From: a phage
Strand: one strand, 5' to 3'
Sequence record: MZ956761.1
Length of the DNA stretch: 64,000 bases
Position numbers and translations under genes: made by a program. Below, one piece after another: positions 11,035 through 58,658 of this stretch. Under the pieces are notes generated by a model, which made no database searches, had not been told where the DNA came from, and saw only the letters and a list, made by a program, of their open reading frames with translations. Within the stretch, counting starts at the first letter, position 1; every line of letters begins with the position of its first letter.

Positions 11035-11110
11035 CGGGGCATAGCTCAGAAGGAAGAGCAAGGACCTTCTAAGTCCTAGGTCGTAGGTTCGATCCCTACT
11101 GCCTCGACCA
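11035..11110 (+). tRNA. tRNA-Arg (UCU), CCA encoded
   Basis: Acceptor cggggca/tgcctcg, anticodon loop cTTCTAa. Confidence 0.85.
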
Positions 11111-11126
11111 ATTAAGTGAGGAAAAT

Positions 11127-11477
11127 ATGAAAGGTAATGTTTATTTAGTAGTTCATGATTTAACATTCTATTTTAATCATAATGACACTGTTATTTCTGA
11201 ACGTGTAATTAATTTGCTTTATCAGCACGCAGATTATGTTTATGTCGAAAACGAATATGGTCATTGGCAATTTCTTAAAAATCGTTCATTTGGCTTAGAT
11301 GGTTACGAATACTTTGAACGTAAAGACCTTTTAGATAAAATTCCGTTATCTACACAATATCAAAATCACAAATCTTTATATAAATGCCGACCAATTCGAA
11401 ATGTTGAATCCGCGTATGAAGCAATTGATTTATGGCGTAAACGCCGTGAACAGATTGATGCTTTAAAAGAATATTAA
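11127..11477 (+). CDS. Hypothetical protein
   Basis: 116 aa ORF 17 nt after tRNA-Arg; RBS GAGGAAAA. Confidence 0.5.
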   Translation: MKGNVYLVVHDLTFYFNHNDTVISERVINLLYQHADYVYVENEYGHWQFLKNRSFGLDGYEYFERKDLLDKIPLSTQYQNHKSLYKCRPIRNVESAYEAIDLWRKRREQIDALKEY

Positions 11478-11579
11478 GAAACCGGGTCGCTACCGGTAAG
11501 TCGTCGGACTGATGTTCCCTGAGTAAGGAATTGTGTTAATAAATCTTTATGATTTGTTGATGCCCTCTTACATCACAGC

Positions 11580-11750
11580 AGAAACGGCGCACCGAATTAT
11601 CGATTCGAGGAAATATCTTTGCCATAAGCCGAGTAGCGTTTTTGACGGAACGTTCGGATATGGTCGAGATATGGCCTTTTAAAAATATTGAGTAGCGTCA
11701 ACTACTTAATAACCGGGTTCGAATCCCGGCGTTTCGTACAAACACTTGCC
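11580..11750 (+). ncRNA. Candidate structured RNA with tRNA-like T-arm and acceptor-like pairing
   Basis: ccggg-ttcgaat-cccgg T-arm at 11722-11738; cgtttcg can pair with gaaacg at 11584-11589; several hairpins; no long ORF. Confidence 0.3.
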
Positions 11751-11788
11751 TTAGCAGGTGGAACCCCGACAAGGTTGCCGCAAGGCTT

Positions 11789-11816
11789 AGCCCCGACCGA
11801 AAGGTTGGGGCTTTTT
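11789..11816 (+). terminator. Rho-independent terminator
   Basis: agccccgacc-gaaa-ggttggggct hairpin followed by TTTTT. Confidence 0.7.
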
Positions 11817-11862
11817 AGTATAAATAAGTATATTAAAACCACGAATTAAAACAGGAAATAAG

Positions 11863-12336
11863 ATGAAATCATATGCTCAATTTTTAAATGAAGCGGTGTT
11901 AAATGAAGCATCTAGCACCGAAATTCAAGCTGTTGCAAAAGCTGCCATTGCCGCGGGTAAATATTCCTATAAGGATGCTTCCGATGAATCACGATTCCAA
12001 TTTGCTCGTGATATGAAAGCCGAAGGATTTACAGGGAATGCAGTTAGTATGGCTTGGAAAAGTTTAGTTGCTACTGGAGCTGCTTTTGCAAAGGCTTCAG
12101 GTAAACCTGCTCCTAAGGCTGACCCTAAAGCAGCACAAGAAAAAAATATTGCTAAAGGAATTATCTCTAGGTATGAAGCAATTCTTAAAGAACTTTTGAT
12201 AATTAAGACCGAAGGCCAGAAACTTGCGCGAGCTCATAGTTTCAAAGATAATCCACATGCTCATGACCTAGAGTATGTTGAAGACATCCAAAAAATTATT
12301 AAAGACCGCATTTGGTCTGCTAAACAAATCAAATAA
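11863..12336 (+). CDS. Hypothetical protein with CTS-like N-terminus (MKSYAQFLNE)
   Basis: 157 aa; RBS AGGAAA; Ala/Lys-rich; N-terminal decapeptide resembles capsid targeting sequence. Confidence 0.5.
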   Translation: MKSYAQFLNEAVLNEASSTEIQAVAKAAIAAGKYSYKDASDESRFQFARDMKAEGFTGNAVSMAWKSLVATGAAFAKASGKPAPKADPKAAQEKNIAKGIISRYEAILKELLIIKTEGQKLARAHSFKDNPHAHDLEYVEDIQKIIKDRIWSAKQIK

Positions 12337-12343
12337 CATTCTT

Positions 12344-12371
12344 AGCCCCGACCGAAAGGTTGGGGCTTTTT
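12344..12371 (+). terminator. Rho-independent terminator (same sequence as 11789-11816)
   Basis: Identical hairpin plus T-tract. Confidence 0.7.
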
Positions 12372-12503
12372 GGTATCTAGGCCTTTCCGGGCCTCTCTAG
12401 GCATCATTTAGTTTATACCCTTTATAATATATTATCCTACCTTTTAATTGCCCCTCCTGACCCTAGAATTCCCTAAAAATTTTTAAAATTTTTTCACAAA
12501 ACG

Positions 12504-12533
12504 GTTTACATCCCCGTTCTTCCATGGTACTAT
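12504..12533 (+). promoter_or_regulatory. Early promoter (GTTTAC-N18-TACTAT)
   Basis: Shares tttttcacaaaac...ggtactatacaactatcaact with promoters at 24156, 27913, 29352, 54378. Confidence 0.55.
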
Positions 12534-12576
12534 ACAACTATCAACTACTGATATAGAAAACAACTTGGAGAACGAA

Positions 12577-12840
12577 ATGGATAATTACGGCGAACTGTTC
12601 AACTTCTTTATGAAATGCGTTTCAGAAGATTTCGGTCGTACAGTGAATGATATTAAAGTTATCGGTCCTGATCATCCGATGTTTGAAACTTACGCAGTAA
12701 TGGGTAATGAAGATGGTCAGTGGTATACTGTAAAGGTTGTGATTAATATGTTCACGGCAGAAGGTTATGTTAAACTGTCTTCTAAAGTTTACCATGATAA
12801 CGATGAAATCGCAGAAGAATATTTCAATAATATGAAATAA
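12577..12840 (+). CDS. Hypothetical protein
   Basis: 87 aa from ATG 12577 (RBS GGAGAA); track start 12565 is TTG. Confidence 0.5.
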   Translation: MDNYGELFNFFMKCVSEDFGRTVNDIKVIGPDHPMFETYAVMGNEDGQWYTVKVVINMFTAEGYVKLSSKVYHDNDEIAEEYFNNMK

Positions 12841-12842
12841 TT

Positions 12843-12872
12843 GTGTACAAACACCAAGGACGGTGTTATTAT
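12843..12872 (+). promoter_or_regulatory. Early promoter variant (GTGTAC-N18-TATTAT)
   Basis: Followed by 26-bp element tgttattatagacttatcaaaacaaa also found at 60933. Confidence 0.4.
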
Positions 12873-12908
12873 AGACTTATCAAAACAAATACAGAAACGG
12901 AGAAATAA

Positions 12909-13073
12909 ATGACTACTTTAATTATTTGGTTTGACGAAAATGAAGAAACATACTGCGTGAACATTGGCGAAAGCCCAATGCCAGAATTTGAATCTTCGGA
13001 TAAAAACTCGGTTGTATCTTGGGCTGAAGGTTATAAAGCAGCAAAAGGCGATGTTGAAATAGTTTACAACTAA
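12909..13073 (+). CDS. Small hypothetical protein (54 aa)
   Basis: ATG 12909 after RBS-like GGAGAAATAA; below track length cut-off. Confidence 0.35.
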   Translation: MTTLIIWFDENEETYCVNIGESPMPEFESSDKNSVVSWAEGYKAAKGDVEIVYN

Positions 13074-13091
13074 GTATGAAGGCGTTACTAT
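13062..13091 (+). promoter_or_regulatory. Early promoter (GTTTAC-N18-TACTAT)
   Basis: Overlaps 3' end of preceding small ORF; followed by tagacttatc motif. Confidence 0.45.
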
Positions 13092-13117
13092 AGACTTATC
13101 ATCACAAGGAAAACATT

Positions 13118-13453
13118 ATGAAACGTAACTTTAGTAAAGCTTTTTGTAATAGAAATGATTATCCTGAAGAGCTTTTTGAATCTAAGGAATTTAAAGAGTT
13201 TAACGAACGTTCTCAAAACATGCCTATACAGTGGGTATTGGATTATGCTAACCGTATCTTTGAAGGCGTACGTTTCGTTGGCCCCGATGATGAAGCTCCT
13301 TATTTTAAAAAGGCTTGGGAACTCGCCAACCAAGCATATATCAATGCTTTAGAATCTTCTAAAGGTACTGACGATGATTTTATTTTATTGGCTATCAATG
13401 ATGCCGTTGTCGAGGCCATCGACGCCTTTATCGACGAGCTAGACGAAGAATAA
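13118..13453 (+). CDS. Hypothetical acidic protein
   Basis: 111 aa; acidic C-terminus. Confidence 0.5.
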   Translation: MKRNFSKAFCNRNDYPEELFESKEFKEFNERSQNMPIQWVLDYANRIFEGVRFVGPDDEAPYFKKAWELANQAYINALESSKGTDDDFILLAINDAVVEAIDAFIDELDEE

Positions 13454-13483
13454 GTTTACAATCTATTAGAAACGTGATATTAT
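13454..13483 (+). promoter_or_regulatory. Early promoter (GTTTAC-N18-TATTAT)
   Basis: GTTTAC 13454-13459, TATTAT 13478-13483. Confidence 0.45.
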
Positions 13484-13510
13484 CTAATTATACCAACCTA
13501 AGGAAATACT

Positions 13511-14104
13511 ATGAACACACTGAAGAAAATTGTTGAGTTTATTCGCACTAAACTTGGTTCTGCTATGGCTAAAAATTTATCTGTTGAAGAACAGTATACT
13601 GCTGCGGCAGCAAAACTGCTTGATAAAATTAAAGATCTAAAAACTGCTTCTGTTAAATCTATTAATGAAGAAAAGCGTATTCGTGAACTTATTGTCGAAA
13701 AGAATAAGCAGGCCGAATCAAAAGAGCGTGAAATTCGCAAGCTTCTTTCCGAAGGTCAAGATGTAACAATGCATGCTAAACTCGGCTTGCTATATCGTCG
13801 AACAGCTGAGCAGTTGACTACTAAAGCTGATGGTTATGCTGAAATGCGAATTGAAATCGCTAAGAAAGTAGTTGAATTGGATGATGCACGCCAAGAACTT
13901 GCGGTTAAATTGGAATATATCCGTGAAACTCGTGCAGCAAATGCCCTTGGAATTAGTACTGCTGATGATGTAGTTGAAATTGCAGCACTGACTAAGGTTG
14001 ATATTGAAGATACTCTTGCTCGAGTTGAAACCTTTAACGGTAATATTTCTGGGGTTGAAACTACTTCTGCTGATGTTCAGGAATACATTAATTCTCTGAA
14101 ATAA
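13511..14104 (+). CDS. Coiled-coil protein, possibly PspA/IM30-like
   Basis: 197 aa, predicted largely helical with heptad-like Ala/Leu/Lys/Glu patterning. Confidence 0.45.
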
Positions 14105-14110
14105 TGATAA

Positions 14111-14130
14111 GGGGCTTCGGCCCCTATTAC
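14111..14130 (+). terminator. UUCG-tetraloop hairpin, terminator-like
   Basis: ggggcttcggcccc right after stop; weak T-tract. Confidence 0.45.
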
Positions 14131-14145
14131 TTGGAGTAAATAGGA

Positions 14146-14754
14146 ATGAAAATGCAAAGTGATTTCAATTCAATGTTTGAAGAGTTCCAAAGACAGGTTG
14201 ATGTTCCAGACCAATTACTAAATGCTCTTAAACGTATGGCAGAAGGACGTAATTATTATTGGGGTTCTTCATATGAAACTGATGAAAGTCTTTCTGGAAG
14301 ATTTTCCAGAGGTAAAAAGTCTTTAATACGTCCTGGAATACTTATTAACAGTATTGAATCAATTCATTCATTGACATGTGATTTTGATGTTGAATTTACT
14401 GATTTCATTTCTCCTGAATGGTCAGTTTGTTATTTAAACGACGATTTTGATTATCTCGGTGTTTATAGTTTAAGTGACGCATGGTTTAAACGTAACTTAC
14501 AAAAGTCAAATTTATTTTATATTGATACTACGGTAAAATTTCAGGGCAAGAAATATTTTTTTACTCTTATAGTTGATTCTGAAACGAAGTATGAAAATAA
14601 ACGTATTCTTAGTAAAAAGAATATCTTAACTATTGTTGATGATCTTTTTGATAAATTCGTAGAAAATCCCAATTTTGAAAGCGATTTATTACTAGAAAAA
14701 TTTGTGAAGGAATGTAGAGAATATGTCAAAGCCATCAATGTATCTTCCAAGTAA
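14146..14754 (+). CDS. Hypothetical protein
   Basis: 202 aa; C-terminal F-V-K-E-C-R motif shared with next three genes. Confidence 0.5.
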   Translation: MKMQSDFNSMFEEFQRQVDVPDQLLNALKRMAEGRNYYWGSSYETDESLSGRFSRGKKSLIRPGILINSIESIHSLTCDFDVEFTDFISPEWSVCYLNDDFDYLGVYSLSDAWFKRNLQKSNLFYIDTTVKFQGKKYFFTLIVDSETKYENKRILSKKNILTIVDDLFDKFVENPNFESDLLLEKFVKECREYVKAINVSSK

Positions 14755-15115
14755 ACCGTTGAAGTATGAATTAAAGCGCCAGCTAATTTCTACTGATGTA
14801 TTAATAGGTCCTGTAATAGCTGTATCATTTGTAATTCTACTGGGGGTTGGAATAGTTATAGATGTTATGACTGATATTGAATCTAATATAATATTTGCGT
14901 CAACATTAATTCTTCCAATGATAGTTCCATTTTTATTAGTACCTGTAAATTGGGTAGGATACTGGTATCAAGGAAGGCATTATCGTAAACGCGTACGTGA
15001 TTGGAAAGCACAGTGTAAAAAGATTAAAAAGGAACATCAGCTTAAACTTGCTGCGTATGAATTTGATGAAATTATGAAATTTGTTAAGGAATCACGATGC
15101 AAAAGCCAAAACTAA
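14723..15115 (+). CDS. Membrane protein, tandem paralog family member 1
   Basis: 130 aa, two hydrophobic helices, C-terminal FVKESR. Confidence 0.5.
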   Translation: MSKPSMYLPSKPLKYELKRQLISTDVLIGPVIAVSFVILLGVGIVIDVMTDIESNIIFASTLILPMIVPFLLVPVNWVGYWYQGRHYRKRVRDWKAQCKKIKKEHQLKLAAYEFDEIMKFVKESRCKSQN

Positions 15116-15459
15116 ATAAAGTCAAATATTCGCTTCCTGAGTCATTTTTAATTTTTGCTGTGGCGTTGGCTGCAGCTCTTGCGGGTAGTCTTTTTGGATT
15201 GTTAATTGACTGTCTTATTTTAAACATTGACGGCACAGTAAATATAATAGAAGTTTGGAGTGAACTTCACTATACTAAAATTATTTCATTATTTTCATTC
15301 TTTGGTACCATGTTATATTTTCATTATGATAATTTTAAAATAAATTGGCAAAGAAAAAAAGATTACAAAATACAATTAAAAGAATATAATAGCTACATGT
15401 CTTATATTGAAAAAGAATCAATGGAAGAGTTTGTGAGTGATTGTAGGAAAATTAAATGA
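15097..15459 (+). CDS. Membrane protein, tandem paralog family member 2
   Basis: 120 aa, two hydrophobic helices, C-terminal FVSDCRKIK. Confidence 0.5.
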   Translation: MQKPKLNKVKYSLPESFLIFAVALAAALAGSLFGLLIDCLILNIDGTVNIIEVWSELHYTKIISLFSFFGTMLYFHYDNFKINWQRKKDYKIQLKEYNSYMSYIEKESMEEFVSDCRKIK

Positions 15460-15944
15460 TTTTAAAAACTCGCTGGTATGATTTAGATGATGGGGATGAT
15501 GGCATTTCAGTTGATAGAGTTGACTGGAATGGTTGTTCCGAAGATATGAAAAATTTGTTGATTAGGGAGTTTAGAATGGGATATCAAGCAGCTAAGCCAT
15601 TTACTGTAACAGATGATAAGTTCGTATGTATTCAAAACGGTCGCGCTAAGTTAACGAATGCTGATTGGTTCACAGATAAGAAGGTTCTTCTGTGGTATAT
15701 CATTAGTCTTCCTATATCATCGTTCGTATTTTACTTTTTTATAAAAAATCCAATGGACAGAATAGGAGATTGGGTTCTTTTAACTATACTTGTTAATATT
15801 TTTACAGCAGCAGTATTATCAGGAATATGGTACATGTTCATTGAAATGCCATGGCGGTTACGCAGACAGCAAAAGATTTTTGATGAAAAGAAATATACTC
15901 AAAATTTAAATAACTTTATCACTGAATGCAGGAAATTAAAATGA
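15456..15944 (+). CDS. Membrane protein, tandem paralog family member 3
   Basis: 162 aa, soluble N-part plus two hydrophobic helices, C-terminal FITECRKLK. Confidence 0.5.
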   Translation: MILKTRWYDLDDGDDGISVDRVDWNGCSEDMKNLLIREFRMGYQAAKPFTVTDDKFVCIQNGRAKLTNADWFTDKKVLLWYIISLPISSFVFYFFIKNPMDRIGDWVLLTILVNIFTAAVLSGIWYMFIEMPWRLRRQQKIFDEKKYTQNLNNFITECRKLK

Positions 15945-16381
15945 AAACACTATCAGCTGGTATTATCTTTATGACAGAAGATAAAGATTTATTTATGGGT
16001 CGGGTTACTGGTTCTCGTAAGCCTGGAATGATGGCACACCGCTGGGATATTCCAAAGGGCCGTGTAGAAAATTCTGATTTAAGCGCATTAGATGCAGCAC
16101 GAAGAGAATGTTTAGAAGAGACTGGTTTTAGCAATTATAATCCAGACCTTCTAGAAGACCTAGGTGTATTTAAATATTCTAGTAATAAAGACCTACAGTT
16201 ATTTTATTATACGATTCCAGTAGAGCATGAGATGTTTAGAAATTGCCATTGCGAGTCTTATTTTGAAAATAAAGACGGTGTTATGATTCCAGAGATGGAC
16301 GCTTTTGCTCTTATTCCTCGTACTCAGTGGCAATATGTGATGGGTCCTTCACTTTACCGAATAATGAACAACCTCTTTTAA
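15926..16381 (+). CDS. nudE: Nudix hydrolase NudE
   Basis: 151 aa; Nudix box GRVENSDLSALDAARRECLEETGF; directly upstream of e. Confidence 0.8.
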   Translation: MQEIKMKTLSAGIIFMTEDKDLFMGRVTGSRKPGMMAHRWDIPKGRVENSDLSALDAARRECLEETGFSNYNPDLLEDLGVFKYSSNKDLQLFYYTIPVEHEMFRNCHCESYFENKDGVMIPEMDAFALIPRTQWQYVMGPSLYRIMNNLF

Positions 16382-16912
<531 letters not shown>

Positions 16913-16916
16913 AGTT

Positions 16917-16946
16917 GTTTACTTTCTCCTAGAATTGTGATAGTAT
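16917..16946 (+). promoter_or_regulatory. Early promoter (GTTTAC-N18-TAGTAT)
   Basis: Directly after e stop, upstream of internal-protein gene. Confidence 0.5.
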
Positions 16947-16983
16947 ATTCACAGTTACTAATTAAAATATTTAAAGGAAACAC

Positions 16984-17301
16984 ATGAAAACGTATAAAGA
17001 ATTTATTGCAGAATCTGCTGCAGGACAACGTGTAGAAGGCGGTTATATCTGGATTGAACAAGTTGAGCCGCCGAGTCGCACTTCTACGGGTAAATGGAAA
17101 ATCACTGTTGATGGTCCTGGTGGTAAACGTAGGACTCTTAAAGAAATTAACGGGTACTATGAAGAAGCTCTTTCTGACGCGGGTACTTATATGATGCAAA
17201 TCATGATTAAAAACCCAGAAAATCGTTTTGCGGCTAGAGTTTTCCGCCGTATTGGAAATAAGCTTTATGATGCATATTCTAAAAACTTTCCTAAAGAATA
17301 A
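16984..17301 (+). CDS. Internal protein (CTS MKTYKEFIAE)
   Basis: 105 aa; CTS-type N-terminus with I-A-E site; IPII/IPIII locus position. Confidence 0.6.
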   Translation: MKTYKEFIAESAAGQRVEGGYIWIEQVEPPSRTSTGKWKITVDGPGGKRRTLKEINGYYEEALSDAGTYMMQIMIKNPENRFAARVFRRIGNKLYDAYSKNFPKE

Positions 17302-17317
17302 AAATTAAAGGATACAC

Positions 17318-17791
17318 ATGAAAACATATCAAGAATTTATTACTGAAGCAGCTATTAATTCTCAAATTATTGCTGAATCTTTTACTGATCTTTTGAAATT
17401 TAAAAAAGGTCAAAAAATCACTGCTGTATTGGATGATGGTACAGAAGTTGAGATGGATGTACAGGGATATAATTATGCAGTAGATGGAAAACTGTATAAT
17501 AAATCTCATGCTAAATTTGATTCATTTGACGACTTTGTTAATACAGTTGAAGATGAAAAAACTCGTAGATCCATTGCAACTGGTGATGCTAAGGTTCTTA
17601 TGGCACATGGTCATGAACGCATTCGCGCTAAACAGAATAAAATGGGTGAAGATAATTTTGCATTAGTTGGTTATCAATCTGGTAAACAAACTTATGGCTA
17701 TCAGCGTACTGCTACCATGTATAACAAAAATGGTAAAATCGCTTTCGTGAATAGCAAAGGCTCTATTCAGTACGTCAAATCATTCAAATAA
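17318..17791 (+). CDS. Internal protein (CTS MKTYQEFITE)
   Basis: 157 aa; CTS-type N-terminus. Confidence 0.6.
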   Translation: MKTYQEFITEAAINSQIIAESFTDLLKFKKGQKITAVLDDGTEVEMDVQGYNYAVDGKLYNKSHAKFDSFDDFVNTVEDEKTRRSIATGDAKVLMAHGHERIRAKQNKMGEDNFALVGYQSGKQTYGYQRTATMYNKNGKIAFVNSKGSIQYVKSFK

Positions 17792-17944
17792 GCAAATAAG
17801 AAATATGGGAACAAGCTGGACCTCATGATTCTATGAGGGATTCCCGCCAACCTGTAATAAGGTCGAGCCCAAGCGCGGTAATGGGTAAATACAGAAATGG
17901 ACAATTCATGCGCCATGGAATGGCCCAAATTTAGAGAGAATAAA

Positions 17945-18484
17945 ATGAGAACATTTTTAACTGGTCCTTATCTATCCCTGATGAATGCTTTTACACACCA
18001 TTCTGATGCTAGAGTAGAAGAAATTTGTAAAAACGAATATATCCCGCCATTTGAAGACTTACTCAAACAGTACTGCACACTTCGCATAGATGGTGGACGT
18101 CAATCCGGCAAATCAATTGCTGTGACTAACTTTGCTGCTAATTGGCTGTATGATGGCGGAACAGTTATTGTTCTTTCTAATACTTCAGCTTACGCTAAAA
18201 TTTCTGCAAATAACATCAAAAAGGAATTTTCGCGTTATTCTAATGATGATATACGTTTTCGTTTATTTACTGATTCTGTGCGCAGTTTTATTGGTAATAA
18301 AGGAAGCAAGTTCAGAGGTTTATCGCTTTCGCGAATTTTGTATATAATTGATGAGCCTGTCAAATCTCCTGATATGGATAAGATTTATAGTGTCCATATT
18401 GACACTGTACACTACTGCTGTAATAGTAAATGTTGCATTGGTGGTATTACTCGTCCGCAGTTTTTCGTAATCGGAATGCAATGA
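17945..18484 (+). CDS. Small P-loop NTPase-like protein
   Basis: 179 aa from ATG 17945 (RBS GAGAGAATAAA); Walker A-like DGGRQSGKS and Walker B-like ILYIIDEP; where T4 has denV. Confidence 0.45.
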   Translation: MRTFLTGPYLSLMNAFTHHSDARVEEICKNEYIPPFEDLLKQYCTLRIDGGRQSGKSIAVTNFAANWLYDGGTVIVLSNTSAYAKISANNIKKEFSRYSNDDIRFRLFTDSVRSFIGNKGSKFRGLSLSRILYIIDEPVKSPDMDKIYSVHIDTVHYCCNSKCCIGGITRPQFFVIGMQ

Positions 18485-18810
18485 TGACAGATACACAGCT
18501 TTTCGAATATCTCTATTTTTCGCCAAAAACTATTAAAAATAAATTGGTAAATCATTTTGAAATTTTGGCAAATAACAACATTTTGAGCGAATTTTATCCC
18601 AAGCAATACAAATTACAAAAAGGTGTATTCAAAGGATGCAGAGTTTTGTGCACTGCTCCTAATGCACGGCTAATGAATAAAATTCCATATTTTACCATGG
18701 AATTTATTGATGGACCTTTTAAAGGATTAATTACGCAAAGTTTAATGGCATATGATTCTGAGCCGTTTTTAATTAAAGAACAATCTTGGATAAATTTATT
18801 TTCTAATTGA
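18481..18810 (+). CDS. Hypothetical protein, translationally coupled to upstream NTPase-like gene
   Basis: 109 aa from ATGATG overlapping upstream TGA. Confidence 0.4.
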
Positions 18811-27888: not shown

Positions 27889-27912
27889 ATTTCAAAAATT
27901 TTTCACAAAACT

Positions 27913-27942
27913 GTTTACAAGCATAAAGCTTTATGGTACTAT
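27913..27942 (+). promoter_or_regulatory. Early promoter (GTTTAC-N18-TACTAT)
   Basis: Spacer holds 14-bp palindrome cataaagctttatg at 27922-27935. Confidence 0.55.
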
Positions 27943-27976
27943 ACAACTATCAACTGATACGGATTTGGAGAATAAA

Positions 27977-28945
27977 ATGAAAACTGTAACTATCAATAAG
28001 GGTATCTACTTCGGTAAAGAAATCTCTGGAACTTTTGAGCTCTTAGGTGAATGGTTCCCAGATAATGCTCCGGTAGATGCACAAGGAGATGGTAAAGTTT
28101 TTGTTGAAATTGACGGTAAACGTCGCGGTGTTTGGGTTTACAAATCAGACATTTCATATGATGGTGTAAAAGTTGAAGAAGTTAAAGAATCATATGAAGA
28201 TATGAAAACCCGCATTAATAAAAGATTTAATGTTATGGGAATGATGACGAATGGTATTATTAACGGAAACATTCGTTCATTAATTATCTCTGGTGCGGCA
28301 GGTATTGGTAAAACGTATTCTTTAGATAAAGCTTTAAATAAAGCAAATGATATTGGATACATTGAGTATAAAAGCATTAATGGTAAAATCTCTGGTATCG
28401 GTCTTTATGAACAGCTCTGGAATAATCGTGAAGAGAATTCTGTCCTTTTGATTGATGATGTGGATGTTTTCTCTGATATGGACATTCTTAATCTTCTGAA
28501 AGCTGCTTTGGACACTGGAGAGACCCGTAAAGTCTGCTGGAGCACTGCATCTTCTTACTTAGAAGAAAAAGGCATTGAGCGTGAGTTTGAATTTAAAGGA
28601 ACGATTGTTTTTATCACAAACGTTGATATTGACCGCGAATTAGACCGTGGTACTAAACTTGCTCCACATTTACAAGCATTAGTGTCCCGCTCAGTTTATT
28701 TAGATTTGGGTGTTCACACTAATGAAGAAATTATGGTCAGGGTTGAAGATGTTATTCTTTCAACCGACATGATGCAAAAGCGCGGTCTTTCTGATGAAGA
28801 AACTTATAAAGCATTATCATGGATGAAAGTCAATGTTAACCGTTTACGCAATGTTTCACTGCGTACTGCTCTTTATCTTGCTGACTTTATTATGACCGAC
28901 AAAAATGGTTGGGAAGAAATCGCTGAGGTTACTCTTCTGAAATAA
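27977..28945 (+). CDS. ATPase with Walker A and B motifs (AAA-like)
   Basis: 322 aa from ATG 27977 (RBS GGAGAATAAA); GAAGIGKT and VLLIDDVD; track start 27809 runs through terminator and promoter. Confidence 0.5.
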   Translation: MKTVTINKGIYFGKEISGTFELLGEWFPDNAPVDAQGDGKVFVEIDGKRRGVWVYKSDISYDGVKVEEVKESYEDMKTRINKRFNVMGMMTNGIINGNIRSLIISGAAGIGKTYSLDKALNKANDIGYIEYKSINGKISGIGLYEQLWNNREENSVLLIDDVDVFSDMDILNLLKAALDTGETRKVCWSTASSYLEEKGIEREFEFKGTIVFITNVDIDRELDRGTKLAPHLQALVSRSVYLDLGVHTNEEIMVRVEDVILSTDMMQKRGLSDEETYKALSWMKVNVNRLRNVSLRTALYLADFIMTDKNGWEEIAEVTLLK

Positions 28946-29351: not shown

Positions 29352-29381
29352 GTTTACAAGACTGTTCCTTTGTGGTACTAT
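29352..29381 (+). promoter_or_regulatory. Early promoter (GTTTAC-N18-TACTAT)
   Basis: GTTTAC 29352-29357, TACTAT 29376-29381. Confidence 0.55.
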
Positions 29382-29409
29382 ACAACTATCAACTACGGAG
29401 GAACACAAA

Positions 29410-43402: not shown

Positions 43403-44605
43403 ATGAAAGTATGCATTTTTATGGCTCGAGGTCTTGAAGGTTGTGGTGTAACTAAATTTTCTCTTGAGCAACGTGATTGGTTTATTAAAAATGGTCATGA
43501 AGTAACTTTGGTTTATGCTAAAGATAAATCATTTACTCGTAACTGCGCGCACGATTATAAATCATTTTCAATTCCGGTTTTATTGGCAAAAGAATACGAT
43601 AAAACACTTAAGCTGGTAAATGATTGTGATATTCTAATTATCAATTCAGTTCCTGCTACTTCAGTTGAAGAAGACACTATTAATAACTATAAAAAAATTA
43701 TTGATAACATTAAACCTTCGGTTCGTGTTGTAGTTTATCAACATGACCATTCTTCTCTTTCTTTGCGACGAAATTTGGGATTAGAAGAAACTGTTCGTCG
43801 AGCTGATGTTATTTTTAGCCATTCTGATAATGGTGATTTTAATAAAGTTCTGATGAAAGAATGGTATCCAGAAACTGTTTCTCTGTTTGATGATATTGAA
43901 GAAGCGCCGACAGTATATAACTTTCAGCCTCCTATGGATATTGCGAAGGTTCGGTCAACCTACTGGAAAGATGTTTCTGAAATTAACATGAATGTCAACC
44001 GTTGGATTGGTCGTACGACTACATGGAAGGGTTTTTATCAGATGTTTGATTTTCACGAAAAACATCTTAAACCTGCAGGACTAAGTACTATTATGGAAGG
44101 TCTGGAACGTTCTCCAGCATTCATTCCTATTAAAGAAAAAGGAATTCCATACGAGTATTATCGTCTTCATCAAGTAGACCAAATTAAAATTGCTCCTAAT
44201 TTGCCAACGCAAATTCTTGACCGTTATGTAAATAGCGAAATGCTTGAGCGTATGAGTAAATCCGGATTTGGTTATCAGTTGAGTAAGTTGGATAAAAAAT
44301 ATCTACAACGTTCTTTAGAATATACTCATCTCGAGCTTGGTGCATGTGGAACAATTCCGGTATTTTGGAAATCTACTGGCGAAAATTTAAAATTCCGTGT
44401 TGATAATACTCCTTTGACCTCACATGATAGCGGTATCATTTGGTTTGATGAAAATGATATGGAATCAACATTCGAGCGTATTAAAGAACTGTCATCTGAC
44501 CGAGCTCTTTATGACCGTGAGCGAGAAAAAGCGTATGAATTTTTGTATCAGCATCAAGATTCAAGCTTCTGCTTTAAAGAACAGTTTGACATTATTACAA
44601 AATAA
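43403..44605 (+). CDS. agt: DNA alpha-glucosyltransferase
   Basis: 400 aa MKVCIFMARGLEGCGVTKFSLEQRDWF; between 55 and 47. Confidence 0.9.
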   Translation: MKVCIFMARGLEGCGVTKFSLEQRDWFIKNGHEVTLVYAKDKSFTRNCAHDYKSFSIPVLLAKEYDKTLKLVNDCDILIINSVPATSVEEDTINNYKKIIDNIKPSVRVVVYQHDHSSLSLRRNLGLEETVRRADVIFSHSDNGDFNKVLMKEWYPETVSLFDDIEEAPTVYNFQPPMDIAKVRSTYWKDVSEINMNVNRWIGRTTTWKGFYQMFDFHEKHLKPAGLSTIMEGLERSPAFIPIKEKGIPYEYYRLHQVDQIKIAPNLPTQILDRYVNSEMLERMSKSGFGYQLSKLDKKYLQRSLEYTHLELGACGTIPVFWKSTGENLKFRVDNTPLTSHDSGIIWFDENDMESTFERIKELSSDRALYDREREKAYEFLYQHQDSSFCFKEQFDIITK

Positions 44606-51565: not shown

Positions 51566-54262
51566 ATGAAAGAATTTTATATCTCTATCGAAACAGTCGG
51601 AAATAACATTGTTGAGCGTTATATTGATGAAAATGGAAAGGAACGTACTCGTGAAGTAGAATATCTTCCGACTATGTTTAGGCATTGTAAGGAAGAGTCA
51701 AAATACAAAGACATTTATGGTAAAAACTGTGCTCCTCAAAAATTTCCATCAATGAAAGATGCACGAGACTGGATGAAGCGAATGGAAGACATCGGTCTCG
51801 AAGCTCTCGGTATGAACGATTTTAAACTCGCTTATATCAGTGATACATATGGTTCAGAAATTGTTTATGACCGAAAATTTGTTCGTGTAGCTAACTGTGA
51901 CATTGAGGTTACTGGTGATAAATTTCCTGACCCAATGAAAGCAGAATATGAAATTGATGCTATCACTCATTATGATTCAATTGACGACCGTTTTTACGTC
52001 TTTGATTTGTTGAATTCAATGTACGGTTCAGTATCAAAATGGGACGCAAAGTTAGCTGCTAAGCTTGACTGTGAAGGTGGTGATGAAGTTCCTCAAGAAA
52101 TTCTTGACCGAGTAATTTATATGCCATTTGATAATGAGCGTGATATGCTCATGGAATATATTAATCTCTGGGAACAGAAACGACCTGCTATTTTTACTGG
52201 TTGGAATATTGAGGGATTTGACGTTCCGTATATCATGAATCGCGTTAAAATGGTTCTCGGCGAACGTAGTATGAAACGCTTCTCTCCAATCGGTCGAGTA
52301 AAATCTAAACTAATTCAAAATATGTACGGTAGCAAAGAAATTTATTCTATTGATGGCGTATCTATTCTTGATTATTTAGATTTATACAAGAAGTTTGCAT
52401 TTACTAATTTGCCATCGTTCTCTTTGGAATCAGTTGCTCAACATGAAACCAAAAAAGGTAAATTGCCGTACGATGGTCCTATTAATAAACTTCGTGAGAC
52501 TAATCATCAACGATACATTAGTTATAACATCATTGACGTAGAATCAGTTCAAGCAATTGATAAAATTCGTGGGTTTATCGATCTAGTTTTAAGTATGTCT
52601 TATTACGCTAAAATGCCTTTTTCTGGTGTAATGAGTCCTATTAAAACTTGGGATGCTATTATTTTTAACTCACTGAAAGGTGAACATAAGGTTATTCCTC
52701 AACAAGGTTCGCACGTTAAACAGAGTTTTCCAGGTGCATTTGTGTTTGAACCTAAACCGATTGCTCGTCGATACATTATGAGTTTTGACTTGACGTCTCT
52801 GTATCCTAGCATTATTCGTCAGGTTAACATTAGTCCTGAGACTATTCGCGGGCAGTTTAAAGTTCATCCAATTCATGAATATATCGCAGGAACAGCTCCT
52901 AAGCCAAGTGATGAATATTCTTGCTCTCCGAATGGATGGATGTATGATAAGCACCAAGAAGGTATCATTCCAAAGGAAATCGCTAAAGTATTTTTCCAGC
53001 GTAAAGATTGGAAAAAGAAAATGTTCGCGGAAGAAATGAATGCCGAAGCTATTAAAAAGATTATTATGAAAGGTGCAGGGTCTTGCTCAACTAAACCAGA
53101 AGTTGAACGATATGTTAAGTTCAGTGATGATTTCTTAAACGAATTATCGAATTACACCGAATCTGTTCTTAACAGTCTGATTGAAGAATGTGAAAAAGCG
53201 GCTACACTTGCTAACACAAATCAGCTGAACCGTAAAATTCTTATTAACAGTCTTTATGGTGCTCTTGGTAATATTCATTTCCGCTACTATGATTTGCGAA
53301 ATGCTACTGCTATCACAATTTTCGGTCAAGTTGGTATTCAGTGGATTGCTCGTAAAATTAATGAATATCTGAATAAAGTATGTGGAACTAATGGTGAAGA
53401 TTTCATCGCAGCAGGTGATACTGATTCGGTATATGTTTGTGTAGATAAAGTAATTGAAAAAGTAGGTCTTGACCGCTTTAAAGAACAAAATGATTTAGTT
53501 GAATTCATGAATCAGTTTGGTAAGAAAAAGATGGAACCTATGATTGATGTTGCATATCGTGAGTTATGTGATTATATGAATAACCGCGAGCATCTGATGC
53601 ATATGGACCGTGAAGCTATTTCTTGCCCTCCGCTTGGTTCAAAGGGTGTTGGTGGATTTTGGAAAGCGAAAAAACGTTATGCTCTGAACGTTTATGATAT
53701 GGAAGATAAGCGATTTGCTGAACCGCATCTAAAAATCATGGGTATGGAAACTCAGCAGAGTTCAACACCAAAAGCAGTACAAGAAGCTCTCGAAGAAAGT
53801 ATTCGTCGTATTCTTCAGGAAGGTGAAGAGTCTGTCCAAGAATACTACAAGAACTTTGAGAAAGAATATCGTCAACTTGATTATAAAGTTATTGCTGAAG
53901 TAAAAACTGCGAACGATATAGCGAAATATGATGATAAAGGTTGGCCAGGATTTAAATGTCCGTTCCATATTCGTGGGGTGCTAACTTATCGTCGAGCTGT
54001 TAGTGGTTTAGGTGTAGCTCCAATTTTGGATGGAAATAAAGTAATGGTTCTTCCATTACGTGAAGGAAATCCATTTGGTGACAAGTGCATTGCTTGGCCG
54101 TCGGGCACAGAACTTCCAAAAGAAATTCGTTCTGACGTACTGTCTTGGATTGACTACTCAACTTTGTTCCAAAAATCGTTTGTTAAACCGCTTGCGGGCA
54201 TGTGTGAATCGGCTGGTATGGACTATGAAGAAAAAGCTTCGTTAGACTTCCTGTTTGGCTGA
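51566..54262 (+). CDS. 43: DNA polymerase gp43 (family B)
   Basis: 898 aa; exonuclease and polymerase motifs incl. YGDTDS. Confidence 0.95.
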   Translation: MKEFYISIETVGNNIVERYIDENGKERTREVEYLPTMFRHCKEESKYKDIYGKNCAPQKFPSMKDARDWMKRMEDIGLEALGMNDFKLAYISDTYGSEIVYDRKFVRVANCDIEVTGDKFPDPMKAEYEIDAITHYDSIDDRFYVFDLLNSMYGSVSKWDAKLAAKLDCEGGDEVPQEILDRVIYMPFDNERDMLMEYINLWEQKRPAIFTGWNIEGFDVPYIMNRVKMVLGERSMKRFSPIGRVKSKLIQNMYGSKEIYSIDGVSILDYLDLYKKFAFTNLPSFSLESVAQHETKKGKLPYDGPINKLRETNHQRYISYNIIDVESVQAIDKIRGFIDLVLSMSYYAKMPFSGVMSPIKTWDAIIFNSLKGEHKVIPQQGSHVKQSFPGAFVFEPKPIARRYIMSFDLTSLYPSIIRQVNISPETIRGQFKVHPIHEYIAGTAPKPSDEYSCSPNGWMYDKHQEGIIPKEIAKVFFQRKDWKKKMFAEEMNAEAIKKIIMKGAGSCSTKPEVERYVKFSDDFLNELSNYTESVLNSLIEECEKAATLANTNQLNRKILINSLYGALGNIHFRYYDLRNATAITIFGQVGIQWIARKINEYLNKVCGTNGEDFIAAGDTDSVYVCVDKVIEKVGLDRFKEQNDLVEFMNQFGKKKMEPMIDVAYRELCDYMNNREHLMHMDREAISCPPLGSKGVGGFWKAKKRYALNVYDMEDKRFAEPHLKIMGMETQQSSTPKAVQEALEESIRRILQEGEESVQEYYKNFEKEYRQLDYKVIAEVKTANDIAKYDDKGWPGFKCPFHIRGVLTYRRAVSGLGVAPILDGNKVMVLPLREGNPFGDKCIAWPSGTELPKEIRSDVLSWIDYSTLFQKSFVKPLAGMCESAGMDYEEKASLDFLFG

Positions 54263-54275
54263 TAGAATAAATCTA

Positions 54276-54296
54276 GGGACCTCCGGGTCCCTTTTT
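54276..54296 (+). terminator. Rho-independent terminator
   Basis: gggacc-tccg-ggtccc plus TTTTT. Confidence 0.75.
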
Positions 54297-54377
54297 CATA
54301 CAAGTAATATAAATCTATACTTATGAAAAACAGATGATTCTGGACCTTTAGAATTCCCCAAAAAATTTTCACAAAAC

Positions 54378-54407
54378 TGTTTACAAGACTGTTCTTCCAT
54401 GGTACTA
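54378..54407 (+). promoter_or_regulatory. Early promoter (GTTTAC-N18-TACTAT)
   Basis: GTTTAC 54378-54383, TACTAT 54402-54407. Confidence 0.55.
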
Positions 54408-54442
54408 TACAACTATCAACTAATACGGATTTGGAGAATAAA

Positions 54443-54679
54443 ATGAAAATTGTTATGGGATGCTTAGCAGTTTGTTTAGTTGCATTAGCAGCTGTTCCAT
54501 TTATTGATATTGAAAATGATACTCAGAATGTGATTGAATCTAATACTGTTATTCACATGAATGGTAAAGTATCAACAAAAATTGATGATAATCTTCATAT
54601 GAATACTAATGGAACGCTGGGTGTTCAATTAGGTAATACCTGTGTAAGCACTACTGGAGTAATTACTACTTGTATTTGA
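54443..54679 (+). CDS. Small secreted or membrane-anchored protein
   Basis: 78 aa from ATG 54443 (RBS GGAGAATAAA); hydrophobic N-terminus. Confidence 0.45.
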   Translation: MKIVMGCLAVCLVALAAVPFIDIENDTQNVIESNTVIHMNGKVSTKIDDNLHMNTNGTLGVQLGNTCVSTTGVITTCI

Positions 54680-54689
54680 GGAAATTATT

Positions 54690-55070
54690 ATGAAAATCGC
54701 TATTTTGGTTATTGCATTAGGTCTTACTGGTTGTGTAGCTCAAGGACCGGTAGTAAATCAGTCTGATGTAGGAAAAATTGTAAACTGTTCAAGCAAATTT
54801 TATAATCCTAATGTCAAGTGTTATAAAGAAGCTCCAAAACAGACAGTAGAACAAATGCAGGCGAATTTTGACGAAGCTATTCGTCCAGATGAATCTGCTC
54901 AAGCATATCGTAATTCGGATGTAATTACACGCGAAGAAAAAATTGAAAACTACTGCGCTGAACTTTGGGCTAATTGGGCTAATAATTACCAATGGCGTAC
55001 TGGTAAAAATGCTCCGATGGAGTATGTAGTGAATTCTTATAATTCATGTGTAAAAAATTTGACTAAGTGA
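54690..55070 (+). CDS. Putative lipoprotein
   Basis: 126 aa; signal peptide with lipobox LTGC. Confidence 0.5.
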   Translation: MKIAILVIALGLTGCVAQGPVVNQSDVGKIVNCSSKFYNPNVKCYKEAPKQTVEQMQANFDEAIRPDESAQAYRNSDVITREEKIENYCAELWANWANNYQWRTGKNAPMEYVVNSYNSCVKNLTK

Positions 55071-55077
55071 GGAAAAC

Positions 55078-55329
55078 ATGGAAACTTTAGTAGCAGGTTC
55101 AATTTTTATGGTTTTAGTTTCAGGTGTGTTGGCTATTATTATATACATGCTTCCATGGTTTATCGCCTTGATGCGTGGGTCAAAATCGACAGTAGGAATC
55201 TTTTTCACATCTTTACTGTTTAACTGGTCAATTATTGGTTGGTTTATTACATTTATTTGGTCAATTGCGGGTGAAACTAAAAAGTCTGCACAACCAAATC
55301 AGGTAATTATCATCAGAGAGAAGGAATGA
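55078..55329 (+). CDS. imm: Superinfection immunity protein Imm
   Basis: 83 aa two-helix membrane protein between 43 and 42. Confidence 0.7.
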   Translation: METLVAGSIFMVLVSGVLAIIIYMLPWFIALMRGSKSTVGIFFTSLLFNWSIIGWFITFIWSIAGETKKSAQPNQVIIIREKE

Positions 55330-55475
55330 AAAGCAAAATTATAGCAGTGTTGCTTTTAATCTTGATGATTATAATAAGTATATACTATAGTGTAACGGTT
55401 CCTCTTATGATTCCAACTATTATTTTAGGTTGGGGTTTATTACTGTTACAAGTTAAATATGAATGTATCAATTGA
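55326..55475 (+). CDS. Small membrane protein (49 aa)
   Basis: ATGA overlap with imm; not in track. Confidence 0.3.
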   Translation: MKSKIIAVLLLILMIIISIYYSVTVPLMIPTIILGWGLLLLQVKYECIN

Positions 55476-55482
55476 GGTTTAA

Positions 55483-56223
55483 ATGATTAGTGACTCTATG
55501 ACAGTTGAAGAAATCCGTCTTCATTTGGGGCTTGCATTAAAAGAAAAAGATTTCGTAGTTGATAAAACCGGTGTTAAAACTATTGAAATTATTGGTGCAT
55601 CATTTGTAGCAGATGAACCGTTTATTTTTGGCGCTCTTAATGATGAATACATTCAACGTGAACTTGAATGGTATAAATCTAAAAGTTTGTTTGTTAAAGA
55701 TATTCCGGGTGAAACACCGAAGATTTGGCAGCAGGTAGCATCTTCTAAAGGCGAAATTAACTCGAATTATGGTTGGGCCATCTGGTCAGAAGATAACTAT
55801 GCCCAGTATGATATGTGTTTAGCTGAACTTGGTCAAAATCCTGATTCTCGGCGTGGTATCATGATTTATACTCGTCCATCCATGCAATTTGACTATAATA
55901 AAGATGGTATGTCAGATTTCATGTGCACGAATACAGTACAGTACCTGATTCGTGATAAGAAAGTTAATGCAGTAGTAAGCATGCGTTCAAATGACGTGGT
56001 CTTCGGATTCCGTAATGATTATGCATGGCAAAAATACGTACTAGATAAATTAGTATCTGATTTGAATGCAGGTGATTCAACTCGTCAGTATAAAGCAGGT
56101 TCTATTATATGGAATGTTGGAAGTCTTCATGTATATTCTCGTCATTTTTACTTGGTTGATCATTGGTGGAATACTGGCGAAACTCATATTGTGAAAAAAG
56201 ATTATAAAGGTGAGTGGAAATGA
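55483..56223 (+). CDS. 42: dCMP hydroxymethylase gp42
   Basis: 246 aa thymidylate-synthase-like fold; position before the glucosyltransferase locus. Confidence 0.9.
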   Translation: MISDSMTVEEIRLHLGLALKEKDFVVDKTGVKTIEIIGASFVADEPFIFGALNDEYIQRELEWYKSKSLFVKDIPGETPKIWQQVASSKGEINSNYGWAIWSEDNYAQYDMCLAELGQNPDSRRGIMIYTRPSMQFDYNKDGMSDFMCTNTVQYLIRDKKVNAVVSMRSNDVVFGFRNDYAWQKYVLDKLVSDLNAGDSTRQYKAGSIIWNVGSLHVYSRHFYLVDHWWNTGETHIVKKDYKGEWK

Positions 56224-57062
56224 TTCAATTCGTAATTCCAAGCTATCAACGCGTAGGGGCAGTTTCTGCCCTTGATATGTTTCCGACTGATTATGAACCT
56301 CATATTGTAGTACGTGAACACGAAGAAAAAGCTTATTATGACGCTTACGGGTCTAGAGCTAAAATTATAACTATTCCTGATGATGTTAACGGAATTGCTG
56401 GTACTCGTAAAGCAATTACTGATATGTATGCAGGTCAACGAATTTGGATGATTGATGATGATACTACTATTCGTATGAGTTCAATGCGAAAGAAAGATGA
56501 TCGTCGCTGCGTAGATAAAATTAATCAATTAACTCGTGAACAGTTCTATGAATTGATTCAATACGTTGAAGATGCCATGGATTGCGGGTATTATCATGGT
56601 CATGCTCGTTTACCAATTTTTAAAATTACTTCATCTTGGGGTAATTATCGTGAAAATTCATATGGATTCACGAATACTTGGTATGACCTCGGGAAACTTA
56701 CAACAGAACAAATTGGGTATGGAAAAATTGATTTATGCGAAGATATGTATGCATTTCTCAATTTAATTAATCAAGGTTATCCGCATTTGGCCTTGTTCAA
56801 ATATCTGGTTGTATCTGGAAAAGCACAGGCTCCAGGCGGATGTAGTTCAATTCGTAGTAATTCAAAACATAATAGAGCTCTTGAGCAAATCAATAGAGAG
56901 TTTCCAGAGCAAGCTCGTTGGAAAACATCGAATATCGAAAAGAGAAAATCGTTGGGTGAAGAAGACGAGCCATTAAAAGTTCTTCGCATGTGTGTTTCGC
57001 GCAAAGAAAAATCAGAAGCATTTCATAAGTTTAATGCTATTCATCCAATAGCAGTTGATTAA
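56214..57062 (+). CDS. Glycosyltransferase at the beta-gt locus (possibly T2/T6-type beta-glucosyl-HMC-alpha-glucosyltransferase)
   Basis: 282 aa; DxD-type motif IWMIDDDTTI; occupies the slot where T4 has beta-gt but does not look like T4 beta-gt. Confidence 0.5.
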   Translation: MEMIQFVIPSYQRVGAVSALDMFPTDYEPHIVVREHEEKAYYDAYGSRAKIITIPDDVNGIAGTRKAITDMYAGQRIWMIDDDTTIRMSSMRKKDDRRCVDKINQLTREQFYELIQYVEDAMDCGYYHGHARLPIFKITSSWGNYRENSYGFTNTWYDLGKLTTEQIGYGKIDLCEDMYAFLNLINQGYPHLALFKYLVVSGKAQAPGGCSSIRSNSKHNRALEQINREFPEQARWKTSNIEKRKSLGEEDEPLKVLRMCVSRKEKSEAFHKFNAIHPIAVD

Positions 57063-57139
57063 TGCCTAAATTTATTGTGTTATAATTACTCTATCTTTAA
57101 CCAGTGAGGAAAATATAATGTTGCCTATGGAAAAAATGA

Positions 57140-58321
57140 ATGTCTATTGCAGATTTAAAATCCCGTTTGATTAAAGCTTCCACTTCTAAAATGACTGCTG
57201 AACTGACTACATCTAAATTCTTTAATGAAAAGGATGTAATCCGTACAAAAATCCCAATGCTTAATATCGCTATTTCTGGTGCGATTGATGGTGGTATGCA
57301 GTCTGGTTTAACCATTTTTGCAGGTCCTTCTAAACACTTTAAATCAAATATGTCTTTGACTATGGTTGCAGCGTATTTGAACAAATATCCTGACGCGGTA
57401 TGTCTATTCTATGATAGCGAATTTGGTATTACTCCTGCTTATTTGCGATCCATGGGAGTTGACCCGGAACGAGTAATTCATACGCCAATTCAGTCAGTTG
57501 AACAGCTGAAAATTGATATGGTGAATCAGCTTGAAGCTATTGAGCGTGGTGAAAAAGTTATTGTATTCATCGACTCAATTGGTAATATGGCTTCTAAGAA
57601 AGAAACGGAAGATGCCTTGAATGAAAAATCTGTGGCAGATATGACTCGTGCTAAATCACTGAAGTCATTATTCCGTATTGTTACTCCTTATTTTAGTATT
57701 AAAAACATTCCGTGCGTTGCGGTTAACCATACAATTGAAACAATTGAAATGTTTAGTAAAACCGTGATGACAGGTGGTACAGGCGTAATGTATTCGGCTG
57801 ATACTGTATTCATTATCGGTAAGCGCCAGATTAAAGATGGTTCTGATCTTCAGGGGTATCAATTTGTTCTAAATGTAGAAAAATCTCGTACCGTTAAAGA
57901 AAAAAGTAAATTCTTTATTGATGTTAAATTTGACGGTGGCATCGATCCTTATTCTGGATTGTTAGATATGGCTCTAGAATTAGGATTTGTGGTAAAACCT
58001 AAAAATGGCTGGTATGCTCGTGAATTTCTTGATGAAGAAACCGGCGAGATGATTCGCGAAGAAAAATCTTGGCGTGCAAAAGATACCAACTGTACTACAT
58101 TCTGGGGTCCTTTATTTAAGCATCAACCATTCCGAGATGCTATTAAACGTGCTTATCAGTTAGGTGCTATTGATAGTAATGAAATTGTTGAAGCTGAGGT
58201 TGATGAATTGATTAACTCAAAGGTTGAAAAATTTAAATCTCCAGAAAGTAAAAGTAAATCAGCAGCTGATTTAGAAACTGACCTAGATCAGTTAAGTGAT
58301 ATGGAAGAATTTAATGAATAA
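57140..58321 (+). CDS. uvsX: Recombinase UvsX (RecA-like)
   Basis: 393 aa; Walker A GPSKHFKS; recognised UvsX sequence. Confidence 0.95.
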   Translation: MSIADLKSRLIKASTSKMTAELTTSKFFNEKDVIRTKIPMLNIAISGAIDGGMQSGLTIFAGPSKHFKSNMSLTMVAAYLNKYPDAVCLFYDSEFGITPAYLRSMGVDPERVIHTPIQSVEQLKIDMVNQLEAIERGEKVIVFIDSIGNMASKKETEDALNEKSVADMTRAKSLKSLFRIVTPYFSIKNIPCVAVNHTIETIEMFSKTVMTGGTGVMYSADTVFIIGKRQIKDGSDLQGYQFVLNVEKSRTVKEKSKFFIDVKFDGGIDPYSGLLDMALELGFVVKPKNGWYAREFLDEETGEMIREEKSWRAKDTNCTTFWGPLFKHQPFRDAIKRAYQLGAIDSNEIVEAEVDELINSKVEKFKSPESKSKSAADLETDLDQLSDMEEFNE

Positions 58322-58658
58322 AGATGATTTAGATTTAGATCTAGAAATTATCGATGAATCCCCCTCTTCGGAGGGGGAAGAAGAAAGAAAAGAACGTCTT
58401 TTTAATGAATCTCTTAAGATAATTAAATCTGCTATGGAAAATGTTATCCAGGAGATTGTCATTAAACTAGAAGACGGTTCTACACACATTGTGTATGTGA
58501 CAAAATTAGATTGGGTTGATGGAAAAGTCGTAATGGACTTTGCTGTTCTTGACCAAGAAAGAAAAGCTGAGTTAGCTCCTCATGTAGAAAAATGTATTAC
58601 AATGCAACTGCAAGATGCATTTAATAAAAGGTCAAAGAAAAAATTTAAATTCTTTTAA
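58314..58658 (+). CDS. 40: Probable gp40 head vertex assembly protein
   Basis: 114 aa from ATG 58314; acidic N-part; between uvsX and 41. Confidence 0.5.
   Translation: MNKDDLDLDLEIIDESPSSEGEEERKERLFNESLKIIKSAMENVIQEIVIKLEDGSTHIVYVTKLDWVDGKVVMDFAVLDQERKAELAPHVEKCITMQLQDAFNKRSKKKFKFF

Follow-up and report, generated by a model that had tools for sequence, protein, structure and literature searches.

A probable T2/T6-type beta-glucosyl-HMC-alpha-glucosyltransferase gene between gene 42 and uvsX of Escherichia phage ADUt

Introduction

Which transferase lies between gene 42 and uvsX, where T4 has its beta-glucosyltransferase gene (beta-gt), is the question raised by sequence record MZ956761.1, a 64,000-nt stretch of phage DNA (hereafter the window) that is 100% identical to Escherichia phage ADUt (OQ466432.1, Tequatrovirus) and runs across the point where the two ends of that linear record join. 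A preliminary description had seen a DxD-type transferase in this slot and had taken it, together with the absence of denV, for a T2/T6-type beta-1,6-glucosyl-alpha-glucose transferase. The open reading frame (ORF) is very probably the T2/T6-type beta-glucosyl-HMC-alpha-glucosyltransferase gene (beta-alpha-gt, g-gt or TAGT), acting in a proposed three-step pathway to gentiobiosyl-5-hydroxymethylcytosine (gentiobiosyl-5hmC or gentiobiosyl-hmC). The gene is already known and ordinary, being annotated in hundreds of phage genomes. The analysis itself shows how closely the protein and its gene order match known cases, which fold and conserved motifs the protein has, and which pathway genes accompany it or are missing; for the chemistry and for the tie between gene and phenotype we rely on published work with proteins 97-98% identical to it; and what DDD and E174/D175 do in catalysis, like the degree to which ADUt DNA is modified, is our inference.

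Identity of the gene and its locus

The slot and its two neighbours are as follows.

55483-56223, + strand: gene 42, dCMP hydroxymethylase of the thymidylate-synthase family (PF00303, E=1.1e-15)
56220-57062, + strand: beta-glucosyl-HMC-alpha-glucosyltransferase coding sequence (CDS), most likely 280 aa plus TAA (PHROG 842, PF20691, T2/T6 identity)
57140-58321, + strand, downstream neighbour: UvsX (PF21134, PF00154)

The product matches PHROG 842, 'beta-glucosyl-HMC-alpha-glucosyltransferase', with E=1.9e-89 over residues 2-277 of the 282-aa ORF used as query, and Pfam PF20691 (TAGT, TET-associated glycosyltransferase) with 38.8 bits against a gathering cutoff of 27.5, covering profile positions 2-205 of 205. 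Over its whole length it is 98.2% identical to the protein of T2 and 97.5% identical to that of T6 (gene 'ggt') at the equivalent locus, which answers the comparison with the T2/T6 transferases proposed in the preliminary description; with the profile matches and the GT-A model presented below, these values support its T2/T6-type inference. By tblastn the protein is present in 690 phage records, 473 of them at 90% identity or more (T2 and T6 included), always adjoining gene 42, and homologues of 63-66% identity occupy the equivalent slot in T4-like phages of Klebsiella, Enterobacter and Salmonella. ADUt annotates the CDS as an 843-nt 'glucosyl transferase', and the exact 280-aa product is found in NCBI under several accessions and in 150 contigs.

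Gene 42 itself is 95-98% identical in nucleotides to gene 42 of T4, T2 and T6. Both the ORF map and the Pfam matches of the neighbours agree with the earlier placement of the transferase between 42 and uvsX; gp43 DNA polymerase and imm-region genes lie further upstream, gp40 and gp41 further downstream, and the minus strand at the locus holds only short ORFs of at most 78 aa. The order 42-transferase-uvsX is common to T2, T6, ADUt and six Durham phages (Geo, EL, BGP, CP, EH2 and QOTSP).

Relative to T4, one segment is exchanged, according to a blastn comparison of the window with the T4T locus and to the T4T annotation.

56206-57151, no strand assigned: swapped cassette versus T4

T4 DNA homology ends at 56205, 18 nt short of the stop codon of gene 42, and restarts at 57152, 12 nt into uvsX; the 946 bp between stand for 1941 bp in T4, which hold beta-gt together with segA, a homing endonuclease gene. 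Since the homology breaks sharply at both slot edges, the sequence comparison points to a cassette replacement and not to divergence. BLASTP detected no similarity between T4 beta-gt and the window protein (E=3.2, with at most 35 residues aligned in one stretch), the T4 beta-gt family PF09198 has no match in the window protein, and a tblastn search of all 64 kb of the window turned up nothing like beta-gt (best E=9.9). The ORF had indeed been described as unlike T4 beta-gt and shorter, and it measures 280 aa against the 340 aa annotated in T4T. A beta-gt orthologue too diverged to be recognised would sit in the same slot and belong to the same general activity class, as the window gene does; nevertheless, the BLASTP result, the sharp breaks on both sides and a GT-B fold in T4 beta-gt against a GT-A model for the window protein leave this explanation with a practically negligible chance, and we regard both fold and sequence as refuting orthology with T4 beta-gt. 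The preliminary description would have given up its assignment on finding either clear homology to T4 beta-gt or a non-transferase homologue; both were looked for, and neither was found.

The 42/glucosyltransferase/uvsX slot is a homing endonuclease hotspot: T4 carries segA after beta-gt (T4T locus 5473-6150), and some relatives (Shigella phage vB_SsoM_113; Klebsiella phages Roth77 and KP185) carry a segD or GIY-YIG gene between gene 42 and TAGT, and there the DNA match to gene 42 ends at base 724 of its 741. No homing endonuclease lies in the 42-uvsX slot of ADUt. Downstream of the transferase, the 77-nt spacer before uvsX (57063-57139) belongs to the swapped cassette, because T4 homology restarts only at 57152. 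It holds two TATAAT -10-like hexamers (57081-57086 and 57114-57119) and is likely the uvsX promoter region. A promoter/terminator scan did not rise above background (14 promoter-like sites, 10.1 +/- 3.8 expected), and an Rfam scan of 54000-58600 matched no family.

Start codon and coding sequence

The maximal ORF, 56214-57062 on the + strand, is uninterrupted and runs from a GTG through 282 codons to TAA; given the base composition of the window (35% G+C), 282 stop-free codons have a probability of about 2e-10. The ORF described earlier is thus present as reported; its start and length have to be revised, the actual start being most likely ATG 56220 and the CDS 56220-57062 encoding 280 aa instead of 282. 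At the boundary with gene 42 the sequence reads AAAGGTGAGTGGAAATGATT, in which ATG 56220 and the TGA stop of gene 42 overlap as ATGA. In the alignment, homologues down to 32% identity all start at the Met of this ATG, followed by an invariant I-P-S-Y-x-R. The annotated CDS of ADUt, of T2 (two records) and of the six Durham phages is 843 nt from the equivalent ATG; that of T6 in AP018814 starts there as well and, having lost 3 nt to a deletion, is 840 nt long. ATG 56220 is also favoured over the GTG by an AAGG(T)GA Shine-Dalgarno-like element 9 nt upstream of the ATG, which is too near the GTG to serve it.

56214-56219, + strand: GTG-GAA extension of the maximal ORF; these bases encode the gp42 C-terminus and are probably untranslated in the transferase

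Two other starts were considered. The GTG at 56214 (282 aa) was rejected because of the ATGA overlap and because the homologues and almost all annotations start at ATG 56220. A start at Met22 (261 aa, T6 record MH550421) was rejected too: only that record has the amber codon which compels it, and the invariant IPSY-R strand would be lost.

Predicted fold and conserved motifs

The AlphaFold2 model of the window protein, built from a 10-sequence alignment (pLDDT 70.9, pTM 0.75, three low-confidence loops), has a GT-A fold; the two-Rossmann-domain arrangement of GT-B was not found in it. An AlphaFold3 analysis of the T6 protein likewise gave a GT-A fold, placed as a sister of GT2 (PMC13216743). 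A PDB sequence search with the transferase returned no solved relative, the best hit (E=0.76) being spurious. Three motifs stand out.

56235-56252, + strand: IPSYQR, N-terminal, on strand beta-1 (E2-6 in the model); I6, P7, S8, Y9 and R11 invariant
56454-56462, + strand: DDD (D79-D81), putative DxD metal/UDP-sugar-binding motif; invariant down to 32% identity
56736-56744, + strand: C-E-D motif at the start of predicted helix H174-184; E174 nearly invariant, D175 invariant

The DDD lies at the end of predicted strand E74-79, at the canonical DxD position and with a pLDDT of about 88, so that the GT-A-type motif noticed at first sight is borne out both by its invariance and by its place in the model. 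In a GT-A fold, IPSYQR would help to bind the nucleotide sugar. The C-E-D motif recalls the ED/TED motif of inverting GT2 enzymes, which makes its D175 or E174 a candidate catalytic base. An inverting GT-A enzyme with UDP-alpha-glucose as donor yields a beta linkage, and such chemistry is consistent with gentiobiose (beta-1,6).

Proposed pathway and its partners

Besides gp42, the pathway needs a glucosyltransferase that prepares the acceptor.

43403-44605, + strand: alpha-glucosyltransferase (a-gt; PF11440, E=3.9e-237), 'alpha-glucosyl-transferase' in ADUt

In the 64-kb window gp42 and alpha-gt are present and beta-gt is absent. It is proposed that gp42 makes 5-hydroxymethyl-dCMP, which would be built into phage DNA; alpha-gt would then move glucose from host UDP-glucose onto 5hmC in alpha linkage, its product being the acceptor for the third enzyme; and the DxD-dependent, GT2-like inverting GT-A enzyme TAGT would add a second glucose from UDP-alpha-glucose, beta-1,6, onto the alpha-glucose to give gentiobiosyl-5hmC. 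The transferase gene would be translationally coupled to gene 42 via the ATGA overlap.

The chemistry is described for close relatives. The PF20691 enzyme of T2/T6 glucosylates already alpha-glucosylated cytosine to give gentiobiosyl-methylcytosine, and alpha-GT plus TAGT is the common state, the T4 combination of alpha-GT and beta-GT occurring in only 6 of 753 genomes (PMC13216743). By LC-MS, Tequatroviruses with alpha-GT and TAGT and no beta-GT carry 5hmdC besides its alpha-glucosyl and alpha-gentiobiosyl forms and nothing that is beta-glucosylated, TAGT being syntenic with T4 beta-GT (PMC13390438). When g-gt is deleted from T6, the DNA contains about 75% alpha-glucosyl-5hmC instead of gentiobiosyl-5hmC (bioRxiv 10.64898/2026.02.25.707755). 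Because the deletion removes gentiobiosyl-5hmC, and with the Tequatrovirus LC-MS data, the link from gene to function is experimentally established for a 97.5% identical protein, that of T6. UDP-glucose-dependent beta-1,6 glucosylation of alpha-glucosyl-5hmC by the window enzyme itself is thus supported by analogy, through the literature on 97-98% identical proteins.

An enzyme of the TAGT family could in principle use another donor or acceptor, for instance another sugar, or beta-glucosylate bare 5hmC directly in place of beta-gt. It does sit in the beta-gt slot, and TAGT homologues occur with alpha-GT, with beta-GT or alone, the specificity of the wider family being unsettled (PMC13216743). 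A change of specificity is nonetheless very unlikely at 97-98% identity to T2 and T6, whose DNA has gentiobiose and no beta-glucosyl-hmC; Durham Tequatroviruses with the same gene set have no beta-glucosyl-hmC either (PMC13390438), and about 25-33% of 5hmC remains bare in such phages, which speaks against direct action on 5hmC. We consequently give this alternative a very low probability. An arabinosyl-transferase of the RB69/Mosigvirus type was rejected on the grounds that gp42 has 95-98% DNA identity to the T4/T2/T6 hydroxymethylase and that alpha-gt is present; moreover, the Mosigvirus transferases are located elsewhere in the genome.

Expected extent of gentiobiosylation

If beta-1,6 glucosylation of alpha-glucosyl-5hmC is accepted as the activity, the next question is how far it would proceed in ADUt. 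Gentiobiosyl-hmC amounts to about 5% in T2 and about 72% in T6, an observation 60 years old. The T2 protein, identical in two independent records, has R11H (56250-56252) at a residue invariant in the aligned homologues and P251S (56970-56972) at a residue conserved in at least 90%; the window has the consensus at both. Among the Durham phages, the high group CP, EH2 and QOTSP has about 2/3 gentiobiosyl-hmC, and the intermediate group Geo, EL and BGP has 5hmC, alpha-glucosyl and gentiobiosyl bases at about 1:2:2. The TAGT of Geo, EL and BGP shares I50V, M89I, R95K, C97R, A202S and Q203H, and their alpha-gt allele is divergent, with about 33 substitutions that are concentrated in residues 47-118 and 221-298; CP, EH2 and QOTSP have the other state at all six TAGT positions. 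The window protein is identical to the high group at 6 of these 6 positions, differing from it by K92 (not R) and I101 (not V), and its alpha-gt equals that of CP at every variable site. This comparison of alleles with modification is correlative, three phages against three, and confounded by relatedness, alpha-gt co-varying with TAGT and the groups being clonal.

T6-like, high gentiobiosylation is predicted for ADUt because both its TAGT and its alpha-gt alleles match the high Durham group: its DNA likely has about 1/3 bare 5hmC, about 2/3 gentiobiosyl-5hmC and no beta-glucosyl-5hmC. A weak, T2-like allele would leave the DNA mostly mono-alpha-glucosylated, with a few percent of gentiobiosyl-hmC. 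Such an outcome is imaginable, given that the T2 protein is 98.2% identical and yet accompanies only about 5% gentiobiosyl-hmC, and that small sequence changes or factors outside the gene can alter output; we consider it unlikely in view of R11 and P251, at which T2 deviates from the consensus kept in the window, and of the match of TAGT and alpha-gt to phages measured at about 2/3.

The presence of R11H and P251S in both T2 records, and the way in which TAGT alleles track the measured ratios in the six Durham phages, tentatively suggest that allelic variation of TAGT sets the level of mono- versus di-glucosylation and that the two substitutions make the T2 enzyme a hypomorph, which might explain 5% in T2 versus 72% in T6; we hold this to be possible and rather doubtful. 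Were it true, the consensus allele of ADUt would give T6-like DNA.

The public T6 records carry changes of their own. MH550421.1 has TAG for CAG at codon 10 (2534-2536 of the locus, window 56247-56249), and its annotation begins at Met22, 261 aa, because of this TAG; AP018814.1 has an in-frame 3-nt deletion that turns the invariant DDD into DD (equivalent of window 56454-56462) and leaves 279 aa. Both changes are potentially inactivating, which is odd for a phage with about 72% gentiobiosyl-hmC; possibly they arose by mutation in laboratory stocks or reflect errors in sequencing the GAT repeat.

Implications for the phage

With its alpha-gt and TAGT, ADUt falls into the common class of Tequatrovirus and not into the rare T4 class with alpha-gt and beta-gt. 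From this class, DNA with gentiobiosyl-5hmC and bare 5hmC is predicted, and from that DNA a profile of sensitivity to modification-dependent defences. The Brig3 glycosylase targets bare 5hmC; Brig1 requires alpha-glucosyl-5hmC, of which little is left after gentiobiosylation; GmrSD/BrxU-type enzymes act on DNA with either glucosyl or gentiobiosyl groups; and BapA is unable to strip glucose from gentiobiosyl-5hmC. The assignment is of use for host-range prediction in phage therapy and is not a discovery.

The denV region and other features of the window

Absence of denV, part of the original argument for a T2/T6-type genome, holds up. With T4 proteins and DNA as tblastn/blastn queries, DenV has no match anywhere in the window, and its T4 neighbours are found: e (98%) at 16418-16912 and vs.8/vs.7 (97-99%) at 17833-18807.

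16913-17896, + strand: e-vs.8 interval, in T4 ipIII-ipII-denV; two internal-protein-like ORFs and no denV

The T4 ipIII-ipII-denV segment is replaced here by 779 bp with the two internal-protein-like ORFs (16984-17301 and 17318-17791), which carry an MKTY(K/Q)EFI(A/T)E internal-protein leader; more leader-like copies lie near 8813 and 61928. These leader-bearing ORFs look like variable internal-protein (anti-restriction) cassettes, and IPI-III of T4 are reported as inhibitors of GmrSD-type enzymes.

On the minus strand at 3393-3890 lies a second lysozyme-like sequence, which shares 44% identity with T4 e across 166 aa. Since the ADUt record places a 'baseplate hub structural protein / lysozyme R' within window 1-18110, this sequence probably represents the lysozyme domain of gp5. 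A repeat of about 90 bp, from just 3' of gene 43 (T4T locus 2622-2714), occurs at 12485-12579, 27894-27983, 29352-29399 and 54370-54456, that is, in three window copies of 84-90% identity besides the gene 43-downstream region; it may be an intergenic regulatory or terminator element.

Comparison with known systems

T4 beta-gt resembles the window enzyme in its genomic slot, its use of UDP-glucose and its beta-glycosidic bond on modified phage DNA. It differs in fold (GT-B, PF09198, against the GT-A model) and in acceptor, which is bare 5hmC for T4 beta-gt and the glucose of alpha-glucosyl-5hmC for the T2/T6-type enzyme; the T4 slot also carries segA. The inverting GT-A enzymes of the GT2 family (such as BcsA, AvpGT, PcManGT and GlfT2) have only 9-14% sequence identity to the window protein and act on glycan or lipid acceptors, whereas the acceptor of the window enzyme would be a sugar on duplex DNA; the window enzyme is a soluble single domain of 280 aa whose C-terminal part, with its GKAQAPGGCSS loop, is distinct and conserved. 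The T2/T6 enzyme is the closest counterpart, alike in its 280 aa, its position between gene 42 and uvsX, the ATGA overlap and the accompanying gp42 and alpha-gt without beta-gt. The window protein has K92 and I101 where T2 and T6 have R and V, so that the T2 enzyme differs from it by R11H, K92R, I101V and P251S; the T6-specific Y40N, D55G and R106H do not occur in the window protein, nor do the amber codon 10 and the DDD-to-DD deletion of the public T6 records.
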